DNA of 64,000 bases, taken from contig JBKPTC010000031.1 of assembly GCA_046735355.1 (NCBI GenBank), positions 159 to 64,158 on the forward strand, read 5' to 3'. The notes under the pieces were generated by a model that ran no database searches, was not told the DNA's origin, and worked only from the letters and a program-made list of their open reading frames with translations. The position numbers were made by a program, and so were the translations under genes. Every line of letters begins with the position of its first letter. Within the stretch, counting starts at the first letter, position 1. The DNA comes from a bacterium (GTDB lineage Bacteria; Actinomycetota; UBA4738; HRBIN12). Below are positions 9,859-42,956 of the stretch, piece by piece.

Positions 9859-11055
9859 TCATCTTTCTGAACTCACCGTTTCGACGAGCGGGCGAGCCAT
9901 CCCGCCGATGTTGTCGAACCCGTGGTTGCTTAGCACGACGACGACTGCGTGCGCGTCGGGGACGCACCCTGCCCACGCGACGTAGGCAGAGCCGGTGATG
10001 AACCCACCGGTATGCCCCACTGCCTCTGCGTACGGATCGGCCACGTTGTACAGCCCGAGCCCGTACCCCTCGTGGGTTGCCATCTCGGTCAGCGAAGCTT
10101 GGGAGACGATCTCGCCGGTGCAGAACGCCCGCCACCAGCGCGCCAGCGAAGGCGCGTCCGAGGCCAGGGCACCACCTGCTGCGCCGTCAGCGGATGCAGC
10201 AGCGAGGGATGGCAGGTAGCCTCCACCCTTCCTTAGCGCAGCCGCCGAGCGCCCGCTGGGCATCGCTATGGGCGGGGTCGGCTTCTCATCCGGTTGATAG
10301 ATGAGCCGGTCCGTCCCCTCGACGTCCAGGACGCCGTCGCGCAGGACGTCGCCCACCGGCCGCCCGCGGATGTGTTCGATGACCAGCCCGAGGAGCTGGT
10401 AGTTGGCGTTCGCGTACTCGAACGACTCACCGGCGGGAGCGCGCTCCGCGGGGACGAGCTTCAGCGCGTCGGCGGGGGTCCAGAACCGTCGCGGATGCGC
10501 AGACAGACGGGGGTCTTCGATCTCGAAGTTGGTCTCAGGGATGCCACTGCGCTGGCCGAGCAGCTGACGGATCGTCGCCCCATTCGTGTCGAAGTGGAGG
10601 TCGGCAGGGAGGTGCTCACTCGCCGGGTCGTCGAGGTCGAGTTCACCGGCCTCGACCATCTGCATCACTTGGGCCGCGATCACGGACTTCACGACGCTGT
10701 GGATCGCGAACTGATCGTCGACCCGTACGTCTCGGACGCCGTCGGCCTTGCCGGTCGCTCCGCTCCAGGTTCCGTCGGCGGACATCACCGTGGCCGCCAT
10801 CCCGGTTCCGCGGGCCATCTCGTTCAAGGCCGCCTGGAACTCCGACGCCGCCTTGGGAGAGACCGCGTCCTCGCTGATGTCGGCGAACGCCTCGGTCGGG
10901 AAGCTCTCGACCGCTTCACTCGGGAGGTCCGAGGCAACCGGGGTCGCCGACGGCTCCGCCGGGACTGTCGTGCCGGTGTCGTTCGAGGTCGACGTGCACG
11001 CGCCCAGCGTGACAACGAGGGCCAACCCCAAGACGCTCCCGAGAAGATTCTTCAT
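9859..11055 (-). CDS. Serine hydrolase of the beta-lactamase/transpeptidase superfamily; lipoprotein.
   Basis: RBS ggtggagg before ATG (complement of 11053-11055). Lipobox MKNLLGSVLGLALVVTLGAC. SxxK (HSVVKSV), YxN (YANANY) and HTG motifs are present. Confidence 0.8.
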   Translation of the reverse strand: MKNLLGSVLGLALVVTLGACTSTSNDTGTTVPAEPSATPVASDLPSEAVESFPTEAFADISEDAVSPKAASEFQAALNEMARGTGMAATVMSADGTWSGATGKADGVRDVRVDDQFAIHSVVKSVIAAQVMQMVEAGELDLDDPASEHLPADLHFDTNGATIRQLLGQRSGIPETNFEIEDPRLSAHPRRFWTPADALKLVPAERAPAGESFEYANANYQLLGLVIEHIRGRPVGDVLRDGVLDVEGTDRLIYQPDEKPTPPIAMPSGRSAAALRKGGGYLPSLAAASADGAAGGALASDAPSLARWWRAFCTGEIVSQASLTEMATHEGYGLGLYNVADPYAEAVGHTGGFITGSAYVAWAGCVPDAHAVVVVLSNHGFDNIGGMARPLVETVSSER

Positions 11056-11102: not shown

Positions 11103-11882
11103 CTAGGGAGATCTGGAAGGGTTCGACGCGTCGAGCGCCTCCTCCGGGCGCAGCTCGACCGTCTTGAGGAGCCCCCCGCGGCCCCAAAACCAGTGCGTGT
11201 CGTAGGTTTCGAGGAGACGCCGCTCGTCCGCGACGTGGAGGTAGATGAAGTAGCCGCGTGTCTCCGTCGCGACGGTCAGGACGATCCCGCGCGCACCGCC
11301 TCCCTCACCGCAGTACTCGAACCATGCTTCGTTGCCTTGGAAACCGTTGCCGCTGCCTCCGCCCCCACCCCGCGTACACATACCGGGCGGGAAATCGGGC
11401 AGGTTTGTCCAGTCCATTGGCGACTTGCCGCCGAGGGGCGCGGAGACCAGGGCGATGTAGAGATCATCCCGAAGCTGCGGGTCGAAGATGACGTCGACGT
11501 CGGACGCGTCGAAGGCGAGTTCGCCGTGACCCCAGGGCTCGGTCGCCGCCCGCGTCCGCCAGCCGGACGGGTAGCCGATGGAGAGACCGTTTAGCGGCGA
11601 GTCGAACCGCTCCGTGAACGAAGACGGCTGCGTGACGGGCGACGATGCCACCGGCGACGGAGACGCCGCGGGACCGATCACCGCTCCGCGTTCGGATGCG
11701 AGCAGCCGGACTAGCCCGACCGCCGCGAAGGCGAACACCGCGATGCCGAGGACGCCTGCCGCAACCCGCTGGTTCCGGCGCTTGTGATCGCGGCGGCGAA
11801 GTAGGGCGTCGTAGGGGTGGTCGGGCGCATCGATGCTCATCGCCGCCCGCTTGGCCCTGTCGAGGATCTCCTGGTCATTCAT
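11103..11882 (-). CDS. Putative anti-sigma factor: single-pass membrane protein with an extracytoplasmic domain.
   Basis: Start overlaps the sigma gene stop by 8 bp. Cytoplasmic N-terminus, TM segment VAAGVLGIAVFAFAAVGLV, then a Gly-rich extracellular domain. Confidence 0.5.
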   Translation of the reverse strand: MNDQEILDRAKRAAMSIDAPDHPYDALLRRRDHKRRNQRVAAGVLGIAVFAFAAVGLVRLLASERGAVIGPAASPSPVASSPVTQPSSFTERFDSPLNGLSIGYPSGWRTRAATEPWGHGELAFDASDVDVIFDPQLRDDLYIALVSAPLGGKSPMDWTNLPDFPPGMCTRGGGGGSGNGFQGNEAWFEYCGEGGGARGIVLTVATETRGYFIYLHVADERRLLETYDTHWFWGRGGLLKTVELRPEEALDASNPSRSP

Positions 11883-12399
11883 CGCCGGTCTCCCTTGCGA
11901 AATGCGCTCTCGCCTGAGCCACGAGGGATCGGACGGTAGACTCCTTCACACCGAGCACGGCTCCCGCGTCGTGATAGGCGAATCCCTGGATACCTGTGAG
12001 GACGATCGCTTCGCGTTGACGCATGGTCAGTCCTAGCAGGAGACGCACGGCGCTCTCGCGTTCAGCGAGCTGTTCGAACGGGTCGCTCCCGGCTCGACCT
12101 GGCGCGAGCACGCGCTTGGCGGCGAGCCGTGATCGACGGTAGAGGCTGCGGTAGGCGTTTAGGGCCGTGCGATACAGGTAGCCCTCGAGGTCCGCCACGC
12201 CGTCCAGCTGGTCCCATCGCTCGAGCATCTTGAGGAACGCTGCCTGAGCCACGTCCTCCGCCTCCTCCTTGCTCCCCGAGAGAAGGAGCAGCGACCTGAA
12301 GAGCTGGTCCCATTCGGCGGCGAAGAACGCCTCGAACGAGGTCTCCTCGGCGTCCTCTGCATCGTGGGTCAACGGGATCTGCCTTGGCTGGGTTTCCAT
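11875..12399 (-). CDS. ECF (sigma-70 family) RNA polymerase sigma factor.
   Basis: FEAFFAAEWDQLFRSLLLLSGSKEEAEDVAQAAFLKMLERWDQL matches region 2. TMRQREAIVLTGIQGFAYHDAGAVLGVKESTVRSLVAQAR matches region 4. RBS ggagtg before ATG 12399. Confidence 0.8.
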   Translation of the reverse strand: METQPRQIPLTHDAEDAEETSFEAFFAAEWDQLFRSLLLLSGSKEEAEDVAQAAFLKMLERWDQLDGVADLEGYLYRTALNAYRSLYRRSRLAAKRVLAPGRAGSDPFEQLAERESAVRLLLGLTMRQREAIVLTGIQGFAYHDAGAVLGVKESTVRSLVAQARAHFARETGDE

Positions 12400-12430
12400 C
12401 ACTCCATGGACGCTCGAGCGACACCTCATG

Positions 12431-12460
12431 TGTAGAGCGTCCGGTGGTTTCTTGGTCCTA
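12431..12460 (-). promoter_or_regulatory. Candidate ECF-type promoter (GGACCA-N15-CTCTAC) about 35 bp upstream of the sigma gene start.
   Basis: Minus-strand reading gives aGGACCAagaaaccaccggacgCTCTACacatg. The same CTCTAC hexamer with a GG-rich -35 sits upstream of the second ECF sigma gene at 42311-42340. Confidence 0.3.
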
Positions 12461-13447: not shown

Positions 13448-16400
13448 ATGCCCACCGCCGGAACCGCCGCTGACGTGGAGTTTCGCCTCCTCGGGCCGCT
13501 GGAGGCCGCGGCCGACGGCGGCGCCCCGATCGCGCTCGGCAGCGCCAAACCGCGGGCGTTCCTGACGATCCTGCTGCTGCGGGCCGGCGAGCTCGTCTCG
13601 CGCGACCGCCTGATCGAGGACATCTGGGGCGAGGACGCGCCGGCGACGGCGGGACACAGCCTCGAGGTGTACGCGTCGGGGATCCGCAAGGCGCTCGGGC
13701 CCGGCGGTGCGGCACTCGTCGCGCGTTCGGGCGCCTACGTCCTCGACGTCGAGCGCGACGCGATCGACGTCACGCGGTTCGAGCGCCTGGCCGCCGAGGG
13801 GCGGGTCGCGCTCGGCGAGGGCGACGCATCACGCGCGCTCGAGCGCCTGGCGGCAGCACTCGCGCTGTGGCGGGGGCCGGCGCTCGCCGACGTCGCGTAC
13901 GAGTCGTTTGCGCAGGCCGAGATCGCTCGGCTGGATGAGCTGCGGCTCTCCGCGATCGAGGACCGCATCGAGGCCGAGCTCCGGCTCCGACGCCACGCCG
14001 AGCTCGTCGGCGAGCTCCGCGCCCTGGCCGCGGCCAACCCGGTCCGCGAACGACTGACGGGGCAGCTGATGCTCGCGCTATATCGGACGGGCCGCCAGGC
14101 CGAAGCACTCGACGTGTACCGCTCGGCGCGCGATCGGCTCGCGGACGAGCTCGGGATCGACCCCTCGCCCGAGCTCCGTGCGCTCGAGACGGCGATCCTG
14201 CGGCAGGCGGACGAGCTCGACGTCCCGGACGCCGCCGGGGCCGGGGCCGCCGGCGCTCGCGAGGCGCCCGGCGAGGACGACGTTCCACACGCACGCGAGG
14301 TCCGCAAGGTGGTGTCGGCGTTGTCGATCCACCTCGATATGCGCGCGGCGGACGGTGGCGCCCTCGATCCCGAACGCCGGCGGAGCGTCTCGGCGAGCGT
14401 GAGCGAGATCGTTTCCAGGGCGGCCGAGCGCGCAGGCGGCCACACCACGACGAAAGCGGGCGCGTCCGTCCTCGTATTCGGCGTCCCGCGCGTACACGAG
14501 GACGATGCGCGCCGGGCGCTCGTCGCGGCGTTCGCGATCCGGGATGGCGTGCGCGGCGCCGCGGCTGACGCGGCGAGCGTCCTCGCGCTCGATGTCCGGA
14601 TCGGCGTCGACACGGGCGAGGTGATCGCCTCGCCGAACGACCAGGGGATGCTCGACAGCGACGTCGTCGTATCGGCGGGTGATCTGGCGCGCGCCGCGCC
14701 GCCCGACGAGATCGCGATCGGCGACCGGACGCGCCGGATGCTGGCCGACGACGTCGTCGTCGACGAGGCGGCCATGGAGGGTGGTTCCAGGCCCCCGTTT
14801 CTCGTCCGATCGGTTTCGCCGGTGCCGCGACGTCCGACGCCGGGCGGCGCGCGGTCGGACATCGTCGATCGGACCGAGGAGCTCGCGCTCGTCCTCGGCG
14901 TGCTCGAGCGCGCGCGGGCCAACGCGTTGAGCCACCTGTTTACGATCCTCGGGTCCCCTGGGATCGGGAAGAGCCGGCTGATCGACGAGGTCGTTGGGCG
15001 GGCGCGCGACTCGGCGAAGGTCCTGACCGGACATTGCCTGCCGTTCGGCGACGGCATCACGTTCTGGCCGGTCGCCGAGGCCGTTCGCGAGGCGGCCTCG
15101 ATCACCGACGCCGACGACGCCGGGCAGGCGATCGAGAAGATCCGGGCGCTTGTCGCGTCACAGCCGGACGCGCAGATGATCACCGACGCGATCGCGCGGT
15201 TGCTCGGTCTGTCGGCCGAGCCGTCCTCGGCCGGCGAGGCGCAACGCGCCGTCCGCCGGCTGCTCGAGACGCTAGCGCTCGACCGGCCGTTGGTATTCGT
15301 CATCGAGGACCTGCATTGGGCCGAGCCGACACTGCTCGATCTGCTGACGAACGTCGTCGACCGCGCGACGGATTCGGCGTTGCTCGTGCTGTCCACCGCG
15401 CGGCCGGAGTTCCTCGACGCGCATCCGGAGTGGGGCGCTCGCCGGGCGAACGCCGCGAGCGTGCTGCTGGAGCCGCTCTCCGCCGACGACAGTTCGGAGC
15501 TGCTCGGCCGGCTGCTCGAGGGATCCGACCTGCCGTCCGACGTGGCGCAGCAGGTCCTCGCCGCCGCCGACGGCAACCCGCTGTTCATCGAGCAGATCCT
15601 GTCGATGCTGATCGACACCGGCGTGCTCTCACGCACCGACGGCGGCTGGCGAGTGTCCGGCATCGTCGCGCCGATCCCGATCCCGCCGACCCTCCAGTCC
15701 CTGCTCGCGTCGCGGCTGGACCGGCTGACGCCGCATGAGCGCGAGGTGGTGCAGCTGGCCGCCGTGATCGGCAAGGAGTTCCGGGCCGACGACGTTCTGG
15801 CGCTCGCCGAGCGGGGCACCGGAGCCGATCTCGACGACGTCCTCGCCTCGCTCGTCGACAAGGAGTGGCTGCGCCGCGACCGGGTGGCTCGCGCCGACGG
15901 CGCGTACCGCTTCCGCCACGTGCTGATGCAGGTCGCCGCGTACGACGCCATGCCGAAGGCGGAGCGGAGCGAACTGCACGAGCGGCTCGGCTCCTGGCTC
16001 GAGCACACGGCGGGCGAGCGGATCGCCGAGCTCGAGGATCTCGTCGGCCACCACCTTGCGCAGGCGGCGCGCTATCGACTCGAACTCGGCCTCGACGACG
16101 ACGCGACGCGCTCGCTGTCCGATCGCGCGGCCAGACGCCTGCGCGCCGCGGGTGATCGAGCGTTCCTGCGCGGCGACATGCCGGGCGCCGTCGCGCTGCT
16201 GTCGGCGGCCGCCGACCTGTTCGCGCCCGACGACGCCGAGCGGATCACGCTGCTGCCCAGACTCGGGACGGCGCTCGTCGAGATCGCGCGGTTCGACGAC
16301 GCGCTCCGGACGCTCGACGAGGCGTGGGAGCGGTCAACGGCGGCGGGCGACATCGCAACGAGGGCCGACACGCTCTTCTACCGGACGGAGCTCCGCTCGT

Positions 16401-17326
16401 GGTTCGGCACCGTTGACCACGACGAGACCAGGGCGTACGCGCGGTCGATGCTTGCGGAGCTCGACCCGCGGATGGACGGAGCGATCGCCCGCTGCCACAG
16501 GATCCTGGCGATCTTCGCGAGCGACGTGCGGACCTACGGTCGGGAAGCGGAGCTCGCGATGTTCCATGCGCACCGCGCGGGAGACCGGCTTCACGAACTC
16601 GAGATTCTCCAGAACCTCGCCGACGTGGCGTCGGCGCTGAACCATCCGATCGGGACCGCGCTCGAGGCGTGCGACACGCTCCTCGACATCGCCGGACAGG
16701 ACGCCGTCGCCGGCAATGCCGTGCGCGTCATCGCCCTCGGCCCACTGCTAGCCTTCGCCGGGCGTTTCGACGAGGCCCGAGCTGCGATCCGAACGGCGCT
16801 CGACGCGTTCGAGGAGCTGGGGCTCGAGCTTTGGGCGGCGGACAGCGGCGCCGGCGGCGCGGCCGACGTCGAATGGCTCGCCGGGGACCTTCGGGCGGCC
16901 GCCGGTTTCGCGGAGGCCGGTGTGCGAGCACTCGATGCGATGGGCGCGCACGGCTCGACCCGCCGGCACCTGGCTCGAGCCGCCCGCGTGGCGTACGCGG
17001 ATGGACGCCTGCGCGACGCCGAGGAGCACGTGCGCCTCGGACGCGAACGGGAGGCCAGATCCGCGCTCGGCGTGGACGCGATGCTCCGGGCGCGGCGCGG
17101 CGATCCGAGCGGCGAGGCTCCGCTCCGTTTCTGGCTCGACGGGTACGGCCGGATGCCCGAGGGTGAACGCCTCGAGACGATGATGGAGCTCGCCGAGGTC
17201 CTCCACCTCACCGGGAGATATGGCGAGGCGCGTACCATCGTGCGCGACGTCGTCGAACGTGCAGAGAGGCGTGGGGACGTTGCGACCCCGCGCCTCATCG
17301 CGCGCTGGATCGAGCGCTGGCGCTAG
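13448..17326 (+). CDS. Large AfsR/SARP-family regulator: OmpR-type winged helix plus BTAD, a cyclase-homology-like domain, an NB-ARC/AAA P-loop ATPase, and TPR repeats.
   Basis: N-terminus RLLGPLEAAADGG...AFLTILLLRAGELVSRDRLIEDIWGE (DNA-binding) then the BTAD helices. RKVVSALSIHLDMRAA...VLVFGVP...RIGVDTGEVIA matches a class III cyclase fold (second metal Asp absent). ILGSPGIGKSRLIDEV is a Walker A. A long TPR-like helical C-terminus follows. Confidence 0.85.
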   Translation: MPTAGTAADVEFRLLGPLEAAADGGAPIALGSAKPRAFLTILLLRAGELVSRDRLIEDIWGEDAPATAGHSLEVYASGIRKALGPGGAALVARSGAYVLDVERDAIDVTRFERLAAEGRVALGEGDASRALERLAAALALWRGPALADVAYESFAQAEIARLDELRLSAIEDRIEAELRLRRHAELVGELRALAAANPVRERLTGQLMLALYRTGRQAEALDVYRSARDRLADELGIDPSPELRALETAILRQADELDVPDAAGAGAAGAREAPGEDDVPHAREVRKVVSALSIHLDMRAADGGALDPERRRSVSASVSEIVSRAAERAGGHTTTKAGASVLVFGVPRVHEDDARRALVAAFAIRDGVRGAAADAASVLALDVRIGVDTGEVIASPNDQGMLDSDVVVSAGDLARAAPPDEIAIGDRTRRMLADDVVVDEAAMEGGSRPPFLVRSVSPVPRRPTPGGARSDIVDRTEELALVLGVLERARANALSHLFTILGSPGIGKSRLIDEVVGRARDSAKVLTGHCLPFGDGITFWPVAEAVREAASITDADDAGQAIEKIRALVASQPDAQMITDAIARLLGLSAEPSSAGEAQRAVRRLLETLALDRPLVFVIEDLHWAEPTLLDLLTNVVDRATDSALLVLSTARPEFLDAHPEWGARRANAASVLLEPLSADDSSELLGRLLEGSDLPSDVAQQVLAAADGNPLFIEQILSMLIDTGVLSRTDGGWRVSGIVAPIPIPPTLQSLLASRLDRLTPHEREVVQLAAVIGKEFRADDVLALAERGTGADLDDVLASLVDKEWLRRDRVARADGAYRFRHVLMQVAAYDAMPKAERSELHERLGSWLEHTAGERIAELEDLVGHHLAQAARYRLELGLDDDATRSLSDRAARRLRAAGDRAFLRGDMPGAVALLSAAADLFAPDDAERITLLPRLGTALVEIARFDDALRTLDEAWERSTAAGDIATRADTLFYRTELRSWFGTVDHDETRAYARSMLAELDPRMDGAIARCHRILAIFASDVRTYGREAELAMFHAHRAGDRLHELEILQNLADVASALNHPIGTALEACDTLLDIAGQDAVAGNAVRVIALGPLLAFAGRFDEARAAIRTALDAFEELGLELWAADSGAGGAADVEWLAGDLRAAAGFAEAGVRALDAMGAHGSTRRHLARAARVAYADGRLRDAEEHVRLGREREARSALGVDAMLRARRGDPSGEAPLRFWLDGYGRMPEGERLETMMELAEVLHLTGRYGEARTIVRDVVERAERRGDVATPRLIARWIERWR

Positions 17327-17968
17327 TCCGCGTCGGGAACTCGGCCTCGTCCGCCATGATGCCACGGGGCAACCCGGCCGACCGCAACGGTGCGAACGAC
17401 GTCCTGCAATCCCACAGCCCGAGTCGAGCGAGCTACCGGTCTCCGGAGACACGTCCCGACGACGGCGCCCGCTCACGCCAACCAGCCGAACAAGCGTCCG
17501 ATCGAGCAGTCCTCAAGGCGATTGGCGGAGCACCGTCCGGAGCCGATCCTCGAGCGTGCGATCAGGACGGAGGCCGTCACGCCGGTACCGCTCGGCGTCT
17601 TCGACCAACGACGCGCGCTTGGAGCGGATCAGCTCGCGGGCTGTCAGAGCGGCGCGTGTCCGGGCGTAGAAGTCTCCACCGCCGGCGGCGTCGAGCCAGA
17701 CGGGGTGCTTTGCATCGCCTCGGTCGACGCGAACCGGAGACCGCACGGCGCGGCGAGCAGGCGGAGCGGGATTTCCATGGGTGATGCCGATCGCTCACAC
17801 GAACGGCTGCCGCTCTCGATCGAAGAGCAGCTCCATTCGACGCGATCGCCCAAGAACGTCACGCTGAAACGTGATCACCGCGACGTTCGTTCAAAGGAGC
17901 GCAATCAGCGACGGCCAGTCGGCCACTCGTCGTTGTCGAGCGGCACCGGGCGAGCGGTGTCCGGCGTC

Positions 17969-18013
17969 GTGCCCCCGGCAGGAATCGAACCTGCGACACG
18001 CGGTTTAGGAAAC
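17969..18013. repeat. 45-nt near-perfect direct copy of the 3' end (T-arm, acceptor, anticodon arm) of the tRNA-Arg gene at 38596-38667. Putative distal att site of a ~20.5-kb island.
   Basis: gtgcccccggcaggaatcgaacctgcgAcacgcggtttaggaaac matches 38595-38638 at 44/45 with a 1-nt insertion. Same orientation as the tRNA. Confidence 0.7.
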
Positions 18014-41113: not shown

Positions 41114-41767
41114 TCAGCCCGCGCTGACGAACGGGGCCGGATCGAAGATCGCCGTCTGCGCGACGAGATCGCCCGGGCCGCATTCCGCGCTCGAGCCGGT
41201 TTCGCCTATCACGTGGAGGTACAACGTTCGACCCGAGACCGAGAACGAATACGTGATCGTGCAGCCGTAGCCCTTCGCCTGAACGGTATGCGGTCCCGTT
41301 ACGGTGAAGCTCCCGCTCCAGCCCGCCTCCCGCTTGCCCGTGTCGCTCTCCGCCGTCTGGAACCAGAATCCGTCCTGCACCACGAGGCCCTGCCGGATCC
41401 AGCGGTCGAACCTCAGGCCCGGACCGAAGTAGTAGCGAGCCGCCTGCCGACGCGAGAAGCCGGCCTCGCGCAACGTCGACTCGATCGTCGAGCGCGTGAT
41501 CGGATGTGTCCAGTAGACGCCGTCCGGGATCGTCGCGACGGCCTCGCGCGACGGCGTTGGTCCCGTCGCCGCGGCCGACCGCCCGCGAGGCAGCGCGGAC
41601 AACCCGGCGGCTAGGCCGCCGATGCCGACGGCGAGCGCGACGACCGCCGTTCCGATCCGGCGGCGCGCGCGACGGCGCGTCCCCCGGTCGAGCGTCCGTT
41701 GGAGCGCGTCGGGCGGAAGCTCGAAGTGCTCGGAGCGCCGTTCGAGCCGCTCGCGCAGATCACTCAT
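41114..41767 (-). CDS. Putative anti-sigma factor (single TM, extracytoplasmic C-terminal domain).
   Basis: ATG 41767 is coupled to the sigma gene stop (atgagtga). MSDLRERLERRSEHFELPPDALQR, then TM segment IGTAVVALAVGIGGLAAGL. Confidence 0.5.
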   Translation of the reverse strand: MSDLRERLERRSEHFELPPDALQRTLDRGTRRRARRRIGTAVVALAVGIGGLAAGLSALPRGRSAAATGPTPSREAVATIPDGVYWTHPITRSTIESTLREAGFSRRQAARYYFGPGLRFDRWIRQGLVVQDGFWFQTAESDTGKREAGWSGSFTVTGPHTVQAKGYGCTITYSFSVSGRTLYLHVIGETGSSAECGPGDLVAQTAIFDPAPFVSAG

Positions 41768-42246
41768 CGATCGATCCGATCGTCTCGCGCATCGCCGCGC
41801 GCGCCTGCGACGCAAGCACGCGAACGGTGACGTCCCGGATGCCCATCATCGAAGCGGCCTCGCCCGACGTGCAGCCGAGGACGTCGAGGAGGACGAGCGC
41901 GGCTCGTTGCCGAGGCGTCAGATCGGCCAGCGCGCGGTCGATCGAATATCGGTCATCGACGACACCGAACGCGTCGGGCGAGAACTCGCTCGACGTCGAT
42001 GCGAGGCCCGCGACGGCACGGAAGTGGCGTGCGAGCTTCCGCGTCCTCTTCTTCCACCGGTTGAACGCCGCTCGATACAGATAGCCGACGGGATCGTCCA
42101 TCACGGAGACGCGGTCCCAGCGCTCTAGGAGCGCGAGGAACGCGTCCTGGACCATCTCCTCGGCCTCCTGCCGGTTGCCCGTGATGACGCACATGCGACG
42201 GTACAGGGTGGGCGCGTGGTCCTCGAAGAACGTCTCGAACGCCATC
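41760..42246 (-). CDS. ECF sigma-70 family sigma factor, paralogous to 11875-12399.
   Basis: FETFFEDHAPTLYRRMCVITGNRQEAEEMVQDAFLALLERW matches region 2. LTPRQRAALVLLDVLGCTSGEAASMMGIRDVTVRVLASQAR matches region 4. Confidence 0.75.
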
Positions 42247-42310
42247 ACAGACGCGCCGTCGGTCGCGCGGTCGCGCGTCGCGGCGACGAGCCTCAGGCGG
42301 GCCGACATCC

Positions 42311-42340
42311 AGTAGAGAACCCCCCTCGAGGTGGAACCGT
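42311..42340 (-). promoter_or_regulatory. Candidate ECF-type promoter (GGTTCC-N15-CTCTAC) upstream of the second ECF sigma gene.
   Basis: Minus-strand reading cGGTTCCacctcgaggggggttCTCTACtgg. The same -10-like hexamer and spacing occur at 12431-12460. Confidence 0.3.
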
Positions 42341-42455
42341 TTAGCCGGCGGCCCGAAGATCCAGAACATCGCGCCAACCCCGCGGATCGCTAAACGGATG
42401 AGCCACGGCGAGCCTTCTCCTCCCATCGGCATTCGAATCGAAGGAGGCGCTCATC

Positions 42456-42956
42456 ATGACACATCGGATCCGGATCGCGTTGACCGTCCGTCTCGCCGCC
42501 GGGGCCGCGATCGTGGGGGTGCTCGCATCGATCTTCGTCGCGCAGCCGGCGTTCGCGTCCACCGTCGTGCCGGTGCAGATGACGTTCACGGAGCAGGAGT
42601 TCTCGCCGAACTGCTCGCTTCCGGATGGCTTCTGCGGAACGGGCGTCGTGCTGCCGTACGGGAAGGTGACGGAGACGATCCGCTTCGAGGCAGGGTGCGG
42701 CGGTGGATGTGATCTTCGAACGATCTATCTCCCCGGCGGCTCGATTGTCGTCAACGAGCCGTTCAACACGGCGGTGTGCCCGGGAACGTGCGCTCCGGCG
42801 GGTCGTGGAGAGCCCGTCTACGCGGCTCTGTCCGACACGATCATCGCCGGGACTGGCGTCTTCGGGGGCGCGAGCGGGCATCTCGACGGTTCGGTGCGCG
42901 CGTCCGGCGACGCAAGTCTGATCCAGCTATCGGGATCGATCGTGCTGACCGGCTGA
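42456..42956 (+). CDS. Secreted cysteine-rich hypothetical protein.
   Basis: Strong RBS gaaggagg before ATG 42456. Signal peptide MTHRIRIALTVRLAAGAAIVGVLASIFVAQPAFAS. Eight Cys in the mature part. Divergent from the ECF sigma gene. Confidence 0.65.
   Translation: MTHRIRIALTVRLAAGAAIVGVLASIFVAQPAFASTVVPVQMTFTEQEFSPNCSLPDGFCGTGVVLPYGKVTETIRFEAGCGGGCDLRTIYLPGGSIVVNEPFNTAVCPGTCAPAGRGEPVYAALSDTIIAGTGVFGGASGHLDGSVRASGDASLIQLSGSIVLTG

Follow-up and report, generated by a model that had tools for sequence, protein, structure and literature searches.

Two tested promoters of S. coelicolor are close points of reference for the sigma factors described here. Pecf38 reads TGTACAAC-N15-CGTGTCC and Pecf39 reads TGTCAACC ... 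CGTCT (PMC3817407 supplement). Two ECF sigma genes, sigma 1 and sigma 2, are found in the window, by which we mean the whole 64,000-nt stretch of DNA that was analysed (Table 1). A comparison of their predicted promoters with Pecf38 and Pecf39 shows a -35 that likewise ends in AC, CGT or GTT in the -10 and a spacer of about 16 nt, whereas the -35 itself is CTA(C/A)AC and not GTACAAC or GTCAAC. Like the actinobacterial TIGR02983 and ECF38/ECF39 modules (Staron/Casas-Pastor), both sigma factors consist of sigma-2 and sigma-4 domains only, but unlike in those modules the start codons follow only 8 nt after the -10. As in actinobacterial autoregulated ECF modules, the product of the overlapping downstream gene is a membrane protein with a single span. 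Among proteins of solved structure, the nearest in sequence are M. tuberculosis SigE and SigL (ECF holoenzymes 9m9d and 6dv9; E about 1e-10 to 1e-9). Their similarity to the window sigma factors is weak and their promoter consensus is different. Furthermore, their partners RseA and RslA have recognised anti-sigma domains, whereas none is detected in the partners in the window.

The original prediction of two paralogous ECF sigma genes is confirmed. Sigma70_r2 and r4 are present in both proteins, which are 37% identical (100 bits in BLASTP). Each carries PF04542 and PF08281 with no other domain and is shorter than about 200 aa, as expected for ECF (group IV) factors. With TIGR02937 (sigma70-ECF) they score 55.5 and 59 bits, above its cut-off of 42.9. 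The best NCBIfam match of both is TIGR02983, at 94.7 and 97.2 bits, which is below the cut-off of 141.55 for membership in this SigE family (Streptomyces-type). A phmmer comparison with 33 reference ECFs (PMC3817407) pointed to no clear nearest group, the best scores of 44-50 bits being spread over ECF27, ECF14, ECF38 and ECF39. The ECF38/39 representatives reach 27-44 bits, similar to ECF14 and ECF27.

Table 1. Predicted features of the two sigma loci and their surroundings (window coordinates)
Feature	Position	Strand	Remarks
Beta-lactamase-fold serine hydrolase lipoprotein	9859..11055	-	47 nt downstream of partner 1
Single-pass membrane partner of sigma 1, putative anti-sigma	11103..11882	-	259 aa
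ECF sigma factor 1	11875..12399	-	174 aa, METQPRQ... start; Sigma70_r2 + Sigma70_r4_2
Sigma 1 predicted -10, CGTCC	12408..12412	-	motif columns 27-31; invariant T = 12410
Sigma 1 predicted -35, CTACACA	12429..12435	-	family motif columns 4-10
GGACCA, originally proposed -35-like element	12453..12458	-	present here, not conserved
Single-pass membrane partner of sigma 2, putative anti-sigma	41114..41767	-	217 aa
ECF sigma factor 2	41760..42308	-	182 aa, MSARLRL... start; Sigma70_r2 + r4_2
Sigma 2 predicted -10, GGTTC	42317..42321	-	invariant T = 42319
Sigma 2 predicted -35, CTAAACG	42338..42344	-	family motif alignment
Predicted mirror-image second promoter, CTAAACG-N16-CCTTC	42390..42417	+	faces Cys-rich gene, 45 bp from sigma 2 promoter
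Secreted 6-Cys protein, dirigent/allene-oxide-cyclase-like beta-barrel fold	42456..42956	+	likely sigma 2 target

Motif discovery used metagenomic sequences of soil Actinomycetota, from which 47 non-redundant regions upstream of genes of this ECF sigma family were taken. It recovered a two-block motif, CCTA[C/A/G]AC[G/A]-N16-[C/G]GT[T/C/A][C/G], with 20.4 bits against 9.2-9.5 in shuffled sets. The motif, with its AAC-like -35 and CGT-like -10 as in other ECF promoters, is present in 44 of the 47 regions, and both window loci align to it, in agreement with the original proposal of an ECF-type promoter directly 5' of each sigma gene. The information profile of the alignment shows conserved blocks at columns 3-10 and 22-33 with a variable spacer between them, as expected for -35 and -10 elements, and no conserved column within the 30 nt 5' of the -35. 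From the invariant T to the first in-frame start codon there are 10-13 nt in 42 of the 44 regions, and 8-14 nt in all of them. Aligned in this way, both window loci are read as -35 CTA(C/A)AC(A/G), a 16-nt spacer, -10 (C/G)GT(C/T)C, N8 and ATG. Sub-clades have their own variants of the motif (CTACACA/CGTAC, CTAAACG/GGTTC, CTAGACA/CATCC and TGTAACA/CGTTT); such variants could stem from common ancestry instead of sigma-promoter co-evolution. No sigma-70-type promoter was found in the sigma 1 or the sigma 2 region, and no terminator in the sigma-1 region. In a weight-matrix scan of the window for additional targets, all scores beyond the known sites were within the random range. From the presence of the motif we infer that it would serve autoregulation of the ECF sigma genes, each copy being read by its cognate sigma.

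The sigma 1 site is the best of the whole window. With a weight matrix from which the window's own sites were left out it scores 19.2; in random sequences the maxima averaged 13.5 and never exceeded 17.5. The -35 CTACACA is kept in all 14 orthologues compared, each of which carries CGT[A/C]C as -10, so that CTACACA-N15/16-CGT[AC]C-N8-ATG is common to the 14. In the window the -10 lies 16 nt past the -35 and 8 nt ahead of ATG 12399. About 70 sigma 1 orthologues with 60-84% identity are found, mostly of 175-176 aa and with the N-terminus MEAQP. The public gene call P0001 is longer, 184 aa from ATG 12429, a codon inside the promoter spacer that is not conserved among the orthologues. With the ATG 11 nt past the invariant T of the -10, the sigma mRNAs are probably leaderless, with a 5' end on the ATG or only a few bases away from it. 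The tetranucleotide GGAG is frequent 2 nt ahead of the ATG in sigma-1 orthologues, where it varies (GCAC, GGAC, GAAA); if the transcript were slightly longer, this sequence could act as a weak ribosome-binding site. Clade-specific regular-expression scans of about 60 kb of orthologous loci revealed no second sigma-1-type site.

For sigma 2 the start had to be revised. The span 41760-42246 of the original prediction is not a whole number of codons; an in-frame ATG is located at 42245, and the start backed by orthologues is ATG 42308. Lengths of 176-182 aa are found for the public gene call P0104 and for orthologues, MSxRxRL is conserved at the N-terminus, and two orthologous loci (L161, L164) offer no alternative in-frame start. 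On the evidence of the orthologues and of the family-wide promoter-to-start spacing, ATG 42308 is assigned as the start. The -10 GGTTC is found 16 nt past the -35 and 8 nt ahead of this ATG. Orthologues carry CTAAACG, CTCAACG, ATCAACG or CTCAGCG at the -35 position and GGTTT, ACTTT, ACTTC or ACTTC at the -10 position. With the family matrix, scores of 12.4 and 13.2 are obtained for the sigma 2 sites, inside the range of random maxima, so that their support comes from position and ortholog conservation.

The same intergenic region contains a mirror-image copy of the motif on the opposite strand. TAAACG-N18-TTC occurs exactly twice in the window against 0.03 expected, both times in this region and on opposite strands. 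All four sigma-2 orthologous loci (L161, L164, L165, L168) have the divergent two-promoter arrangement too; there the divergent copy reads CTAAACG or CTAAGCG, N16 and GGTTC/GCTTC/GCTCC. The gene that it faces had been described in the original prediction as a divergent secreted 8-Cys protein; secretion, Cys-richness and orientation are borne out, and the number of cysteines is six. The protein forms an eight-stranded antiparallel barrel that can be superposed on members of the dirigent/AOC family. Compared with these dirigent/AOC-like proteins it has only about 10-13% identity, three conserved Cys pairs and a signal peptide. Searches of Pfam and NCBIfam returned no match for it, even at E up to 10. 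The conserved promoter copy makes it a likely output of sigma 2.

A second output, the serine hydrolase lipoprotein beyond partner 1, had been proposed as a continuation of the first operon. It matches PF00144 at E 9.7e-37 and has a lipobox (LGAC) and SVVK as the SxxK motif. The basis for co-transcription is the gap of 47 nt without a terminator-like site. This gap has no copy of the motif either, and no homologue of the hydrolase is found in sigma-1 orthologous loci. With neither conserved linkage nor its own motif copy, the hydrolase is not placed in the sigma 1 regulon; its co-transcription with the sigma 1 operon is possible and unsupported by conservation.

As originally proposed, each sigma gene overlaps a single-pass membrane ORF. 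The start of partner 1 overlaps the stop of sigma 1 by 8 nt (ATGAATGA), and the same overlap is found for partner 2 and sigma 2 (ATGAGTGA). A single hydrophobic span is found in each partner, covering about residues 38-64 in partner 1 and 37-60 in partner 2. Conservation of partner 1 in orthologous loci is confined to the N-terminal 53-95 residues, and partner 2 aligns from end to end with its counterparts in four orthologous loci, at 50-63% identity. Between the two partners the first ~70 residues are alike (hhalign probability 63%). A sensor domain common to both was considered and rejected, as these N-terminal residues alone align, and weakly. The extracytoplasmic domains are large and variable, with a PD40 beta-propeller in one orthologous locus (L172) and probably in another (L174). 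A single-sequence AF2 model of partner 2 reached a pLDDT of 43 and could not be used. No known anti-sigma domain and no Pfam or NCBIfam match was detected in either partner even at E up to 10. In particular, the N-terminal ASD of class I anti-sigma factors (~80-90 residues; zf-HC2 or RskA-like) is not seen; the cytoplasmic part ahead of the membrane span has about 37 residues in both partners, which is too short for the four-helix class I domain. This short cytoplasmic part may point to short class II anti-sigma factors of the CnrY type, which we take as a lead only. Judged from context, namely the 8-nt gene overlap, the kept synteny and the conserved N-terminus with a variable C-terminus, the partners most likely act as anti-sigma factors of the adjacent sigmas.

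Taken together, we consider it likely that both loci are ordinary autoregulated modules of an ECF sigma and a putative anti-sigma, each behind its own family-motif promoter. The host would be an uncultured soil actinomycete. Each sigma gene would be translationally coupled to the membrane partner, which would hold the sigma as its anti-sigma. Once freed from the partner, the sigma would have its own operon transcribed, giving positive autoregulation, and under sigma 2 the mirror-image promoter would also drive the divergent gene for the secreted disulfide-rich beta-barrel.

The original prediction had placed the promoters differently, with GG(A/T)(C/T)C(A/C) as -35, CTCTAC as -10 and a leader of some tens of nt. 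The strings do exist on the minus strand, as GGACCA (12458-12453), 15 nt and CTCTAC (12437-12432) at locus 1 and as GGTTCC (42338-42333), 15 nt and CTCTAC (42317-42312) at locus 2. Their identical 15-nt spacing and the (C/A)TCTAC kept in sigma-1 orthologues are in favour of this reading. However, the alignment of the 44 family promoters puts them in the wrong register. At locus 1 CTCTAC overlaps the 5' half of the -35, within TCTACAC; at locus 2 it lies between the -10 GGTTC and ATG 42308, and GGTTCC begins at the last base of the -35 CTAAACG. Thus CTCTAC falls in different promoter elements at the two loci, and the hexamers are not homologous positions. Nor is the distance to the start comparable: CTCTAC ends 3 nt short of the conserved start of sigma 2 and 32 nt short of that of sigma 1 (12399). 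Upstream of orthologous sigma genes, where its absence had been named as evidence against the proposal, the motif as written fails. None of the 14 sigma-1 orthologues has GGACCA, or any GGWYC, at the equivalent position, and GG[A/T][C/T]C is absent at the GGTTCC position in 4 of 4 sigma-2 orthologues, which also lack CTCTAC and carry TTTTCGGT, TTTTCCTT, TTCTTCCT and TTCTTCCA instead. In the window GGWYC-N16-CTCTAC matches both proposed sites alone against 0.10 expected, which is not a fair test since the pattern was defined after both sites were known; with one mismatch there are 4 matches against 3.6 expected. When 100-nt segments of the window were paired at random 20,000 times, 92.5% of the pairs had an exact hexamer in common, 55% also matched in at least 3 of 6 bases of the hexamer that lies 15 nt upstream, and in 2.7% both upstream hexamers also began with GG. 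TCTACAC as a -10 with a leader of ~25 nt was likewise considered, and was rejected since no conservation is seen on its upstream side and the second block suits a -10. We regard the original register as largely refuted and very improbable. As judged from these alignments and counts, GG-rich-N15-CTCTAC is a chance overlay on both predicted promoters.

Accepting the two-block promoter, one may ask whether it is read by a different sigma, in ECF cross-regulation or a cascade and hence with no autoregulation. Many paralogues share similar forms of the family motif, so specificity could overlap in a genome rich in such sigmas, and autoregulation is not universal among ECF groups (PMC7826278). Such regulation is nevertheless unlikely here. 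The sub-clade variants of the motif follow the clade of the adjacent sigma, and of the 47 loci, from many genomes, 44 have the motif ahead of the sigma gene. Its only second copy faces the syntenic divergent gene. Less credible still is a role of the conserved blocks as an operator or at the RNA level, for example in translation control at the start codon. This would suit the conservation of the second block up to the ATG in sigma-1 orthologues (CGTACATGnAnCGATG), but the variable 16-nt spacer, the fixed spacing and the AC/CGT content suit ECF promoters. In addition, the motif is found ~40 nt upstream of the Cys-rich gene's own ribosome-binding site, which indicates that a start-codon context is not required, and an Rfam scan of the whole window matched a tRNA-Arg as its sole hit, with none over the conserved blocks.

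The practical value of autoregulated modules of this kind is modest, and they leave the current understanding of ECF signalling unchallenged. Two likely start-codon errors are corrected, in the public gene call of sigma 1 and in the originally predicted sigma 2, and one clear candidate target gene is provided by the divergent Cys-rich protein. The two sigma/promoter pairs, CTACACA ... CGTCC and CTAAACG ... GGTTC, are probably orthogonal and are candidate genetic switches. It is conceivable, at rather long odds, that both sigmas and their ~1,700 metagenomic relatives constitute an undescribed ECF group of uncultured soil Actinomycetota defined by three joint traits. If true, its sigma operons would be leaderless with the start codon 8-10 nt past the -10, its anti-sigma factors would combine ~37-residue cytoplasmic segments with interchangeable extracytoplasmic sensor domains, and the sigma-2 lineage would have a secreted, divergently encoded dirigent-like barrel as its single conserved target. 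For this large unstudied ECF family of soil Actinomycetota, the gain is a corrected and comparatively supported promoter motif.

Two paralogous ECF sigma modules were correctly spotted in this region by the original prediction. Sigma 1 and sigma 2, each followed by a gene for a single-pass membrane partner (putative anti-sigma), share 37% identity, contain Sigma70_r2 and r4 domains and no others, and are the sole genes of this type in the window. For both, the top NCBIfam model is TIGR02983 (SigE family), with 94.7 and 97.2 bits, below the cut-off of 141.55. The solved relatives SigE and SigL are distant (E about 1e-10), and 33 reference ECFs provide no clear nearest group for either sigma. 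The clade of ECF222, ECF51, ECF38 and ECF39 has one anti-sigma type in common (ECF Hub paper, PMC7826278). Related loci were collected by metagenome and genome scans (160 loci) and further by exact protein sequence look-ups; their sources are MAGs of uncultured Actinomycetota or Actinomycetes and soil metagenomes.

The start of sigma 1 is ATG 12399 (METQ...). Its orthologues, about 70 with 60-84% identity, are mostly 175-176 aa long with the N-terminus MEAQP. In the public annotation, sigma 1 is a 184-aa gene (P0001) starting inside the promoter spacer, at an ATG (12429) not conserved in orthologues; this start is probably mis-called. Sigma 2 had been placed at 41760-42246, a length which is not divisible into codons, with an in-frame ATG at 42245. 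Since its orthologues have 176-182 aa and MSxRxRL in common at the N-terminus, and since no other in-frame start is available for those in loci L161 and L164, the start is assigned to ATG 42308.

Coordinates of the features in the window
Feature	Position	Strand	Remarks
Partner 1	11103-11882	-	outside-domain Cys 169 and 191
Sigma 1	11875-12399	-	
P0001 start codon	12427-12429	-	
CTCTAC, locus 1	12437-12432	-	
GGACCA, locus 1	12458-12453	-	
SARP/AfsR-like regulator	13448-17326	+	1292 aa; Trans_reg_C, BTAD, AAA_16, TPR domains
ECF-like site	17862-17895	+	CTGAAACG-N16-CGTTC
tRNA T-arm-like fragment	~17975-18000	-	plus-strand text ggcaggaatcgaacctgcgac
Partner 2	41114-41767	-	outside-domain Cys 169 and 196
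Sigma 2	41760-42308	-	
CTCTAC, locus 2	42317-42312	-	
GGTTCC, locus 2	42338-42333	-	
Mirror-image second motif, candidate promoter	42390-42417	+	CTAAACG-N16-CCTTC; sigma 2 intergenic region
Divergent Cys-rich gene	42456-42956		

A common promoter motif had been proposed for both sigma genes, composed of a -35-like GG(A/T)(C/T)C(A/C), 15 nt and CTCTAC. These strings are real, reading aataGGACCAagaaaccaccggacgCTCTACacATGagg at locus 1 and aaacGGTTCCacctcgaggggggttCTCTACtggATGtcg at locus 2 on the minus strand. Their agreement by itself is not compelling. GGWYC-N16-CTCTAC has two matches in the window with 0.1 expected, both being the proposed sites, and the pattern was written from the same two sites it then retrieves. 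With one mismatch it has 4 matches vs 3.6 expected, and CTCTAC alone is not enriched in the window (14 vs 12 expected). A fairer control is given by 20,000 random pairs of 100-nt segments drawn from the window. An exact hexamer is shared by 92.5% of the pairs; in 55% the hexamers 15 nt upstream also match at 3/6 positions or more, and 2.7% also have both upstream hexamers beginning with GG.

The orthologues point to a different element. GGWYC is found at the proposed -35 position in none of 14 sigma-1 orthologues, and CTACACA-N15/16-CGT[AC]C-N8-ATG is kept in 14/14. Their upstream regions read (C/A)TCTACACA(T/C)C, about 12 variable bases and C(T)C(G/A)TGCGT(A/C)CATGnnnCGATG. Four sigma-2 orthologous loci (L161, L164, L165, L168) retain neither GGTTCC nor CTCTAC; they share (T/C)(A/C)A(A/G)CG, 16 nt and (G/A)(G/C)TT(C/T), with the ATG 8-10 nt further on. 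The GG-rich-N15-CTCTAC motif is a chance overlay, failing the prediction's own test of presence upstream of orthologous sigma genes. One sub-clade of sigma-1 orthologues (L002, L004, L010, L081, L082, L172) has an additional block in common directly upstream of the -35 at TCTACACA, consisting of GAGCCGnCTTTCTAGCCGAGCA and further GGGCGCACCGGGAGCC. This block is not in the window; an UP-like element and a site for a regulator are two possible roles.

Gibbs sampling (34-nt window) of 47 non-redundant upstream regions of the sigma family yields one two-block motif, CCTACACG-N16-CGTTC, in 44 of them, with 20.4 bits vs 9.2-9.5 in shuffled sets. The information profile has blocks at columns 3-10 and 22-33, a variable spacer and no conservation in the 30 nt upstream of the first block, a profile characteristic of a -35/-10 pair with the first block as the -35. 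In the family alignment, sigma 1 reads GCT-CTACACA-tgaggtgtcgctcgag-CGTCC-atggagtgATG and sigma 2 reads CGG-CTAAACG-gttccacctcgagggg-GGTTC-tctactggATG. At locus 1, CTCTAC makes up the 5' part of the -35; at locus 2 it follows the -10 and precedes the start codon. Because they fall in different places, the two copies are not homologous positions. The approximate place of both promoters was right and the motif as written was not; the corrected predicted motif is CTA(C/A)AC(A/G)-N16-(C/G)GT(C/T)C-N8-start. Under a weight matrix from which the window's own sites had been left out, the sigma 1 site scores highest (19.2) of all window positions on either strand; maxima in random sequence average 13.5 and reach 17.5 at most. 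At 12.4 and 13.2, both sites in the sigma 2 region are inside the random range. The family motif has general ECF promoter features, namely a -35 ending in AC and a -10 containing CGT or GTT. Its nearest tested promoters are S. coelicolor Pecf38 (TGTACAAC ... CGTGTCC) and Pecf39 (TGTCAACC ... CGTCT).

In all 44 aligned promoters, the invariant -10 T is followed at a distance of 8-14 nt by the first in-frame ATG/GTG/TTG; 11 and 13 are the commonest values, and 11 is found at both window loci. The tested Pecf38 construct has CGT at about -13 to -11 (PMC3817407 supplement), and the same placement here would therefore put +1 on or beside the start codon. Judged from this spacing, the sigma operons are probably leaderless. 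The GGAG that precedes the sigma 1 ATG by 2 nt is not constant among orthologues (GCAC, GGAC, GAAA, GCAG) and appears not to be required.

The putative targets differ in their support. TAAACG-N18-TTC has exactly two matches in the window, which are the two sigma 2 intergenic sites (0.03 expected). The plus-strand copy precedes the ribosome-binding site of the divergent Cys-rich gene by about 40 nt, and this gene with its own motif copy is kept in 4/4 sigma-2 orthologous loci. Two of the divergent products (L164:1755-2300, L165:1783-2328) are 23-29% identical to the window protein and lack most Cys; their genes still bear the promoter copy. The sigma-1-type motif is found once per locus, before the sigma gene only, in the window and nine orthologous loci. 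A beta-lactamase-fold lipoprotein (PF00144, E 1e-36), 47 nt downstream of partner 1, had been proposed as a plausible output of the sigma 1 operon. No terminator is found between the two genes, and read-through is possible in this genome. Regulon membership is unsupported, since no lipoprotein counterpart is found in the sigma-1 orthologous loci, where integrase or transposase genes neighbour the partner gene.

Each sigma stop overlaps the partner ATG by 8 nt (ATGAATGA, ATGAGTGA). In both partners a single hydrophobic span separates about 37 cytoplasmic residues from a larger outside domain, and Pfam/NCBIfam searches match no known anti-sigma domain in either. Likeness between the two is weak and confined to the N-terminal ~70 residues (hhalign probability 63%, E 7e-5); BLASTP between them is insignificant. 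The outside domain of each has exactly two Cys, placed almost alike in the two proteins and both invariant among partner 2 orthologues, and this pattern suggests a disulfide. Partners of three sigma-1 orthologues (L172:4524-5744, L174:4527-5855, L173:4503-5417) keep the N-terminal ~60 residues and differ in their outside domains, with lengths of 259-442 aa. A PD40 beta-propeller is present in L172 and probable in L174 (weak precomputed beta-propeller matches). Such a pattern suggests that sensor domains are swapped on a putative sigma-binding head that stays constant.

Phage-integrase/transposase genes adjoin the same three loci (L172:5904-6323, L173:3111-3776, L174:6081-6449), and a related locus, L007, has a tRNA-3'-end-like GGTTCGAGTCC...CCACCA at upstream ~330-365, not called by ARAGORN. 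Together they hint that the sigma-1 module travels on mobile islands. In the window, the SARP/AfsR-like regulator is encoded on the strand opposite to sigma 1, about 1 kb upstream of that gene. The ECF-like site after it, in a stretch without convincing ORF, scores 15.3 with the family matrix, third best in the window and inside the range of random maxima. The T-arm-like fragment gives no tRNA call by ARAGORN or Rfam and may be what is left of an integration site.

Judged by sequence, both modules are built in the standard way for autoregulated ECF sigma factors paired with a membrane protein. They belong to an already-known type of system, and what is new is these members.
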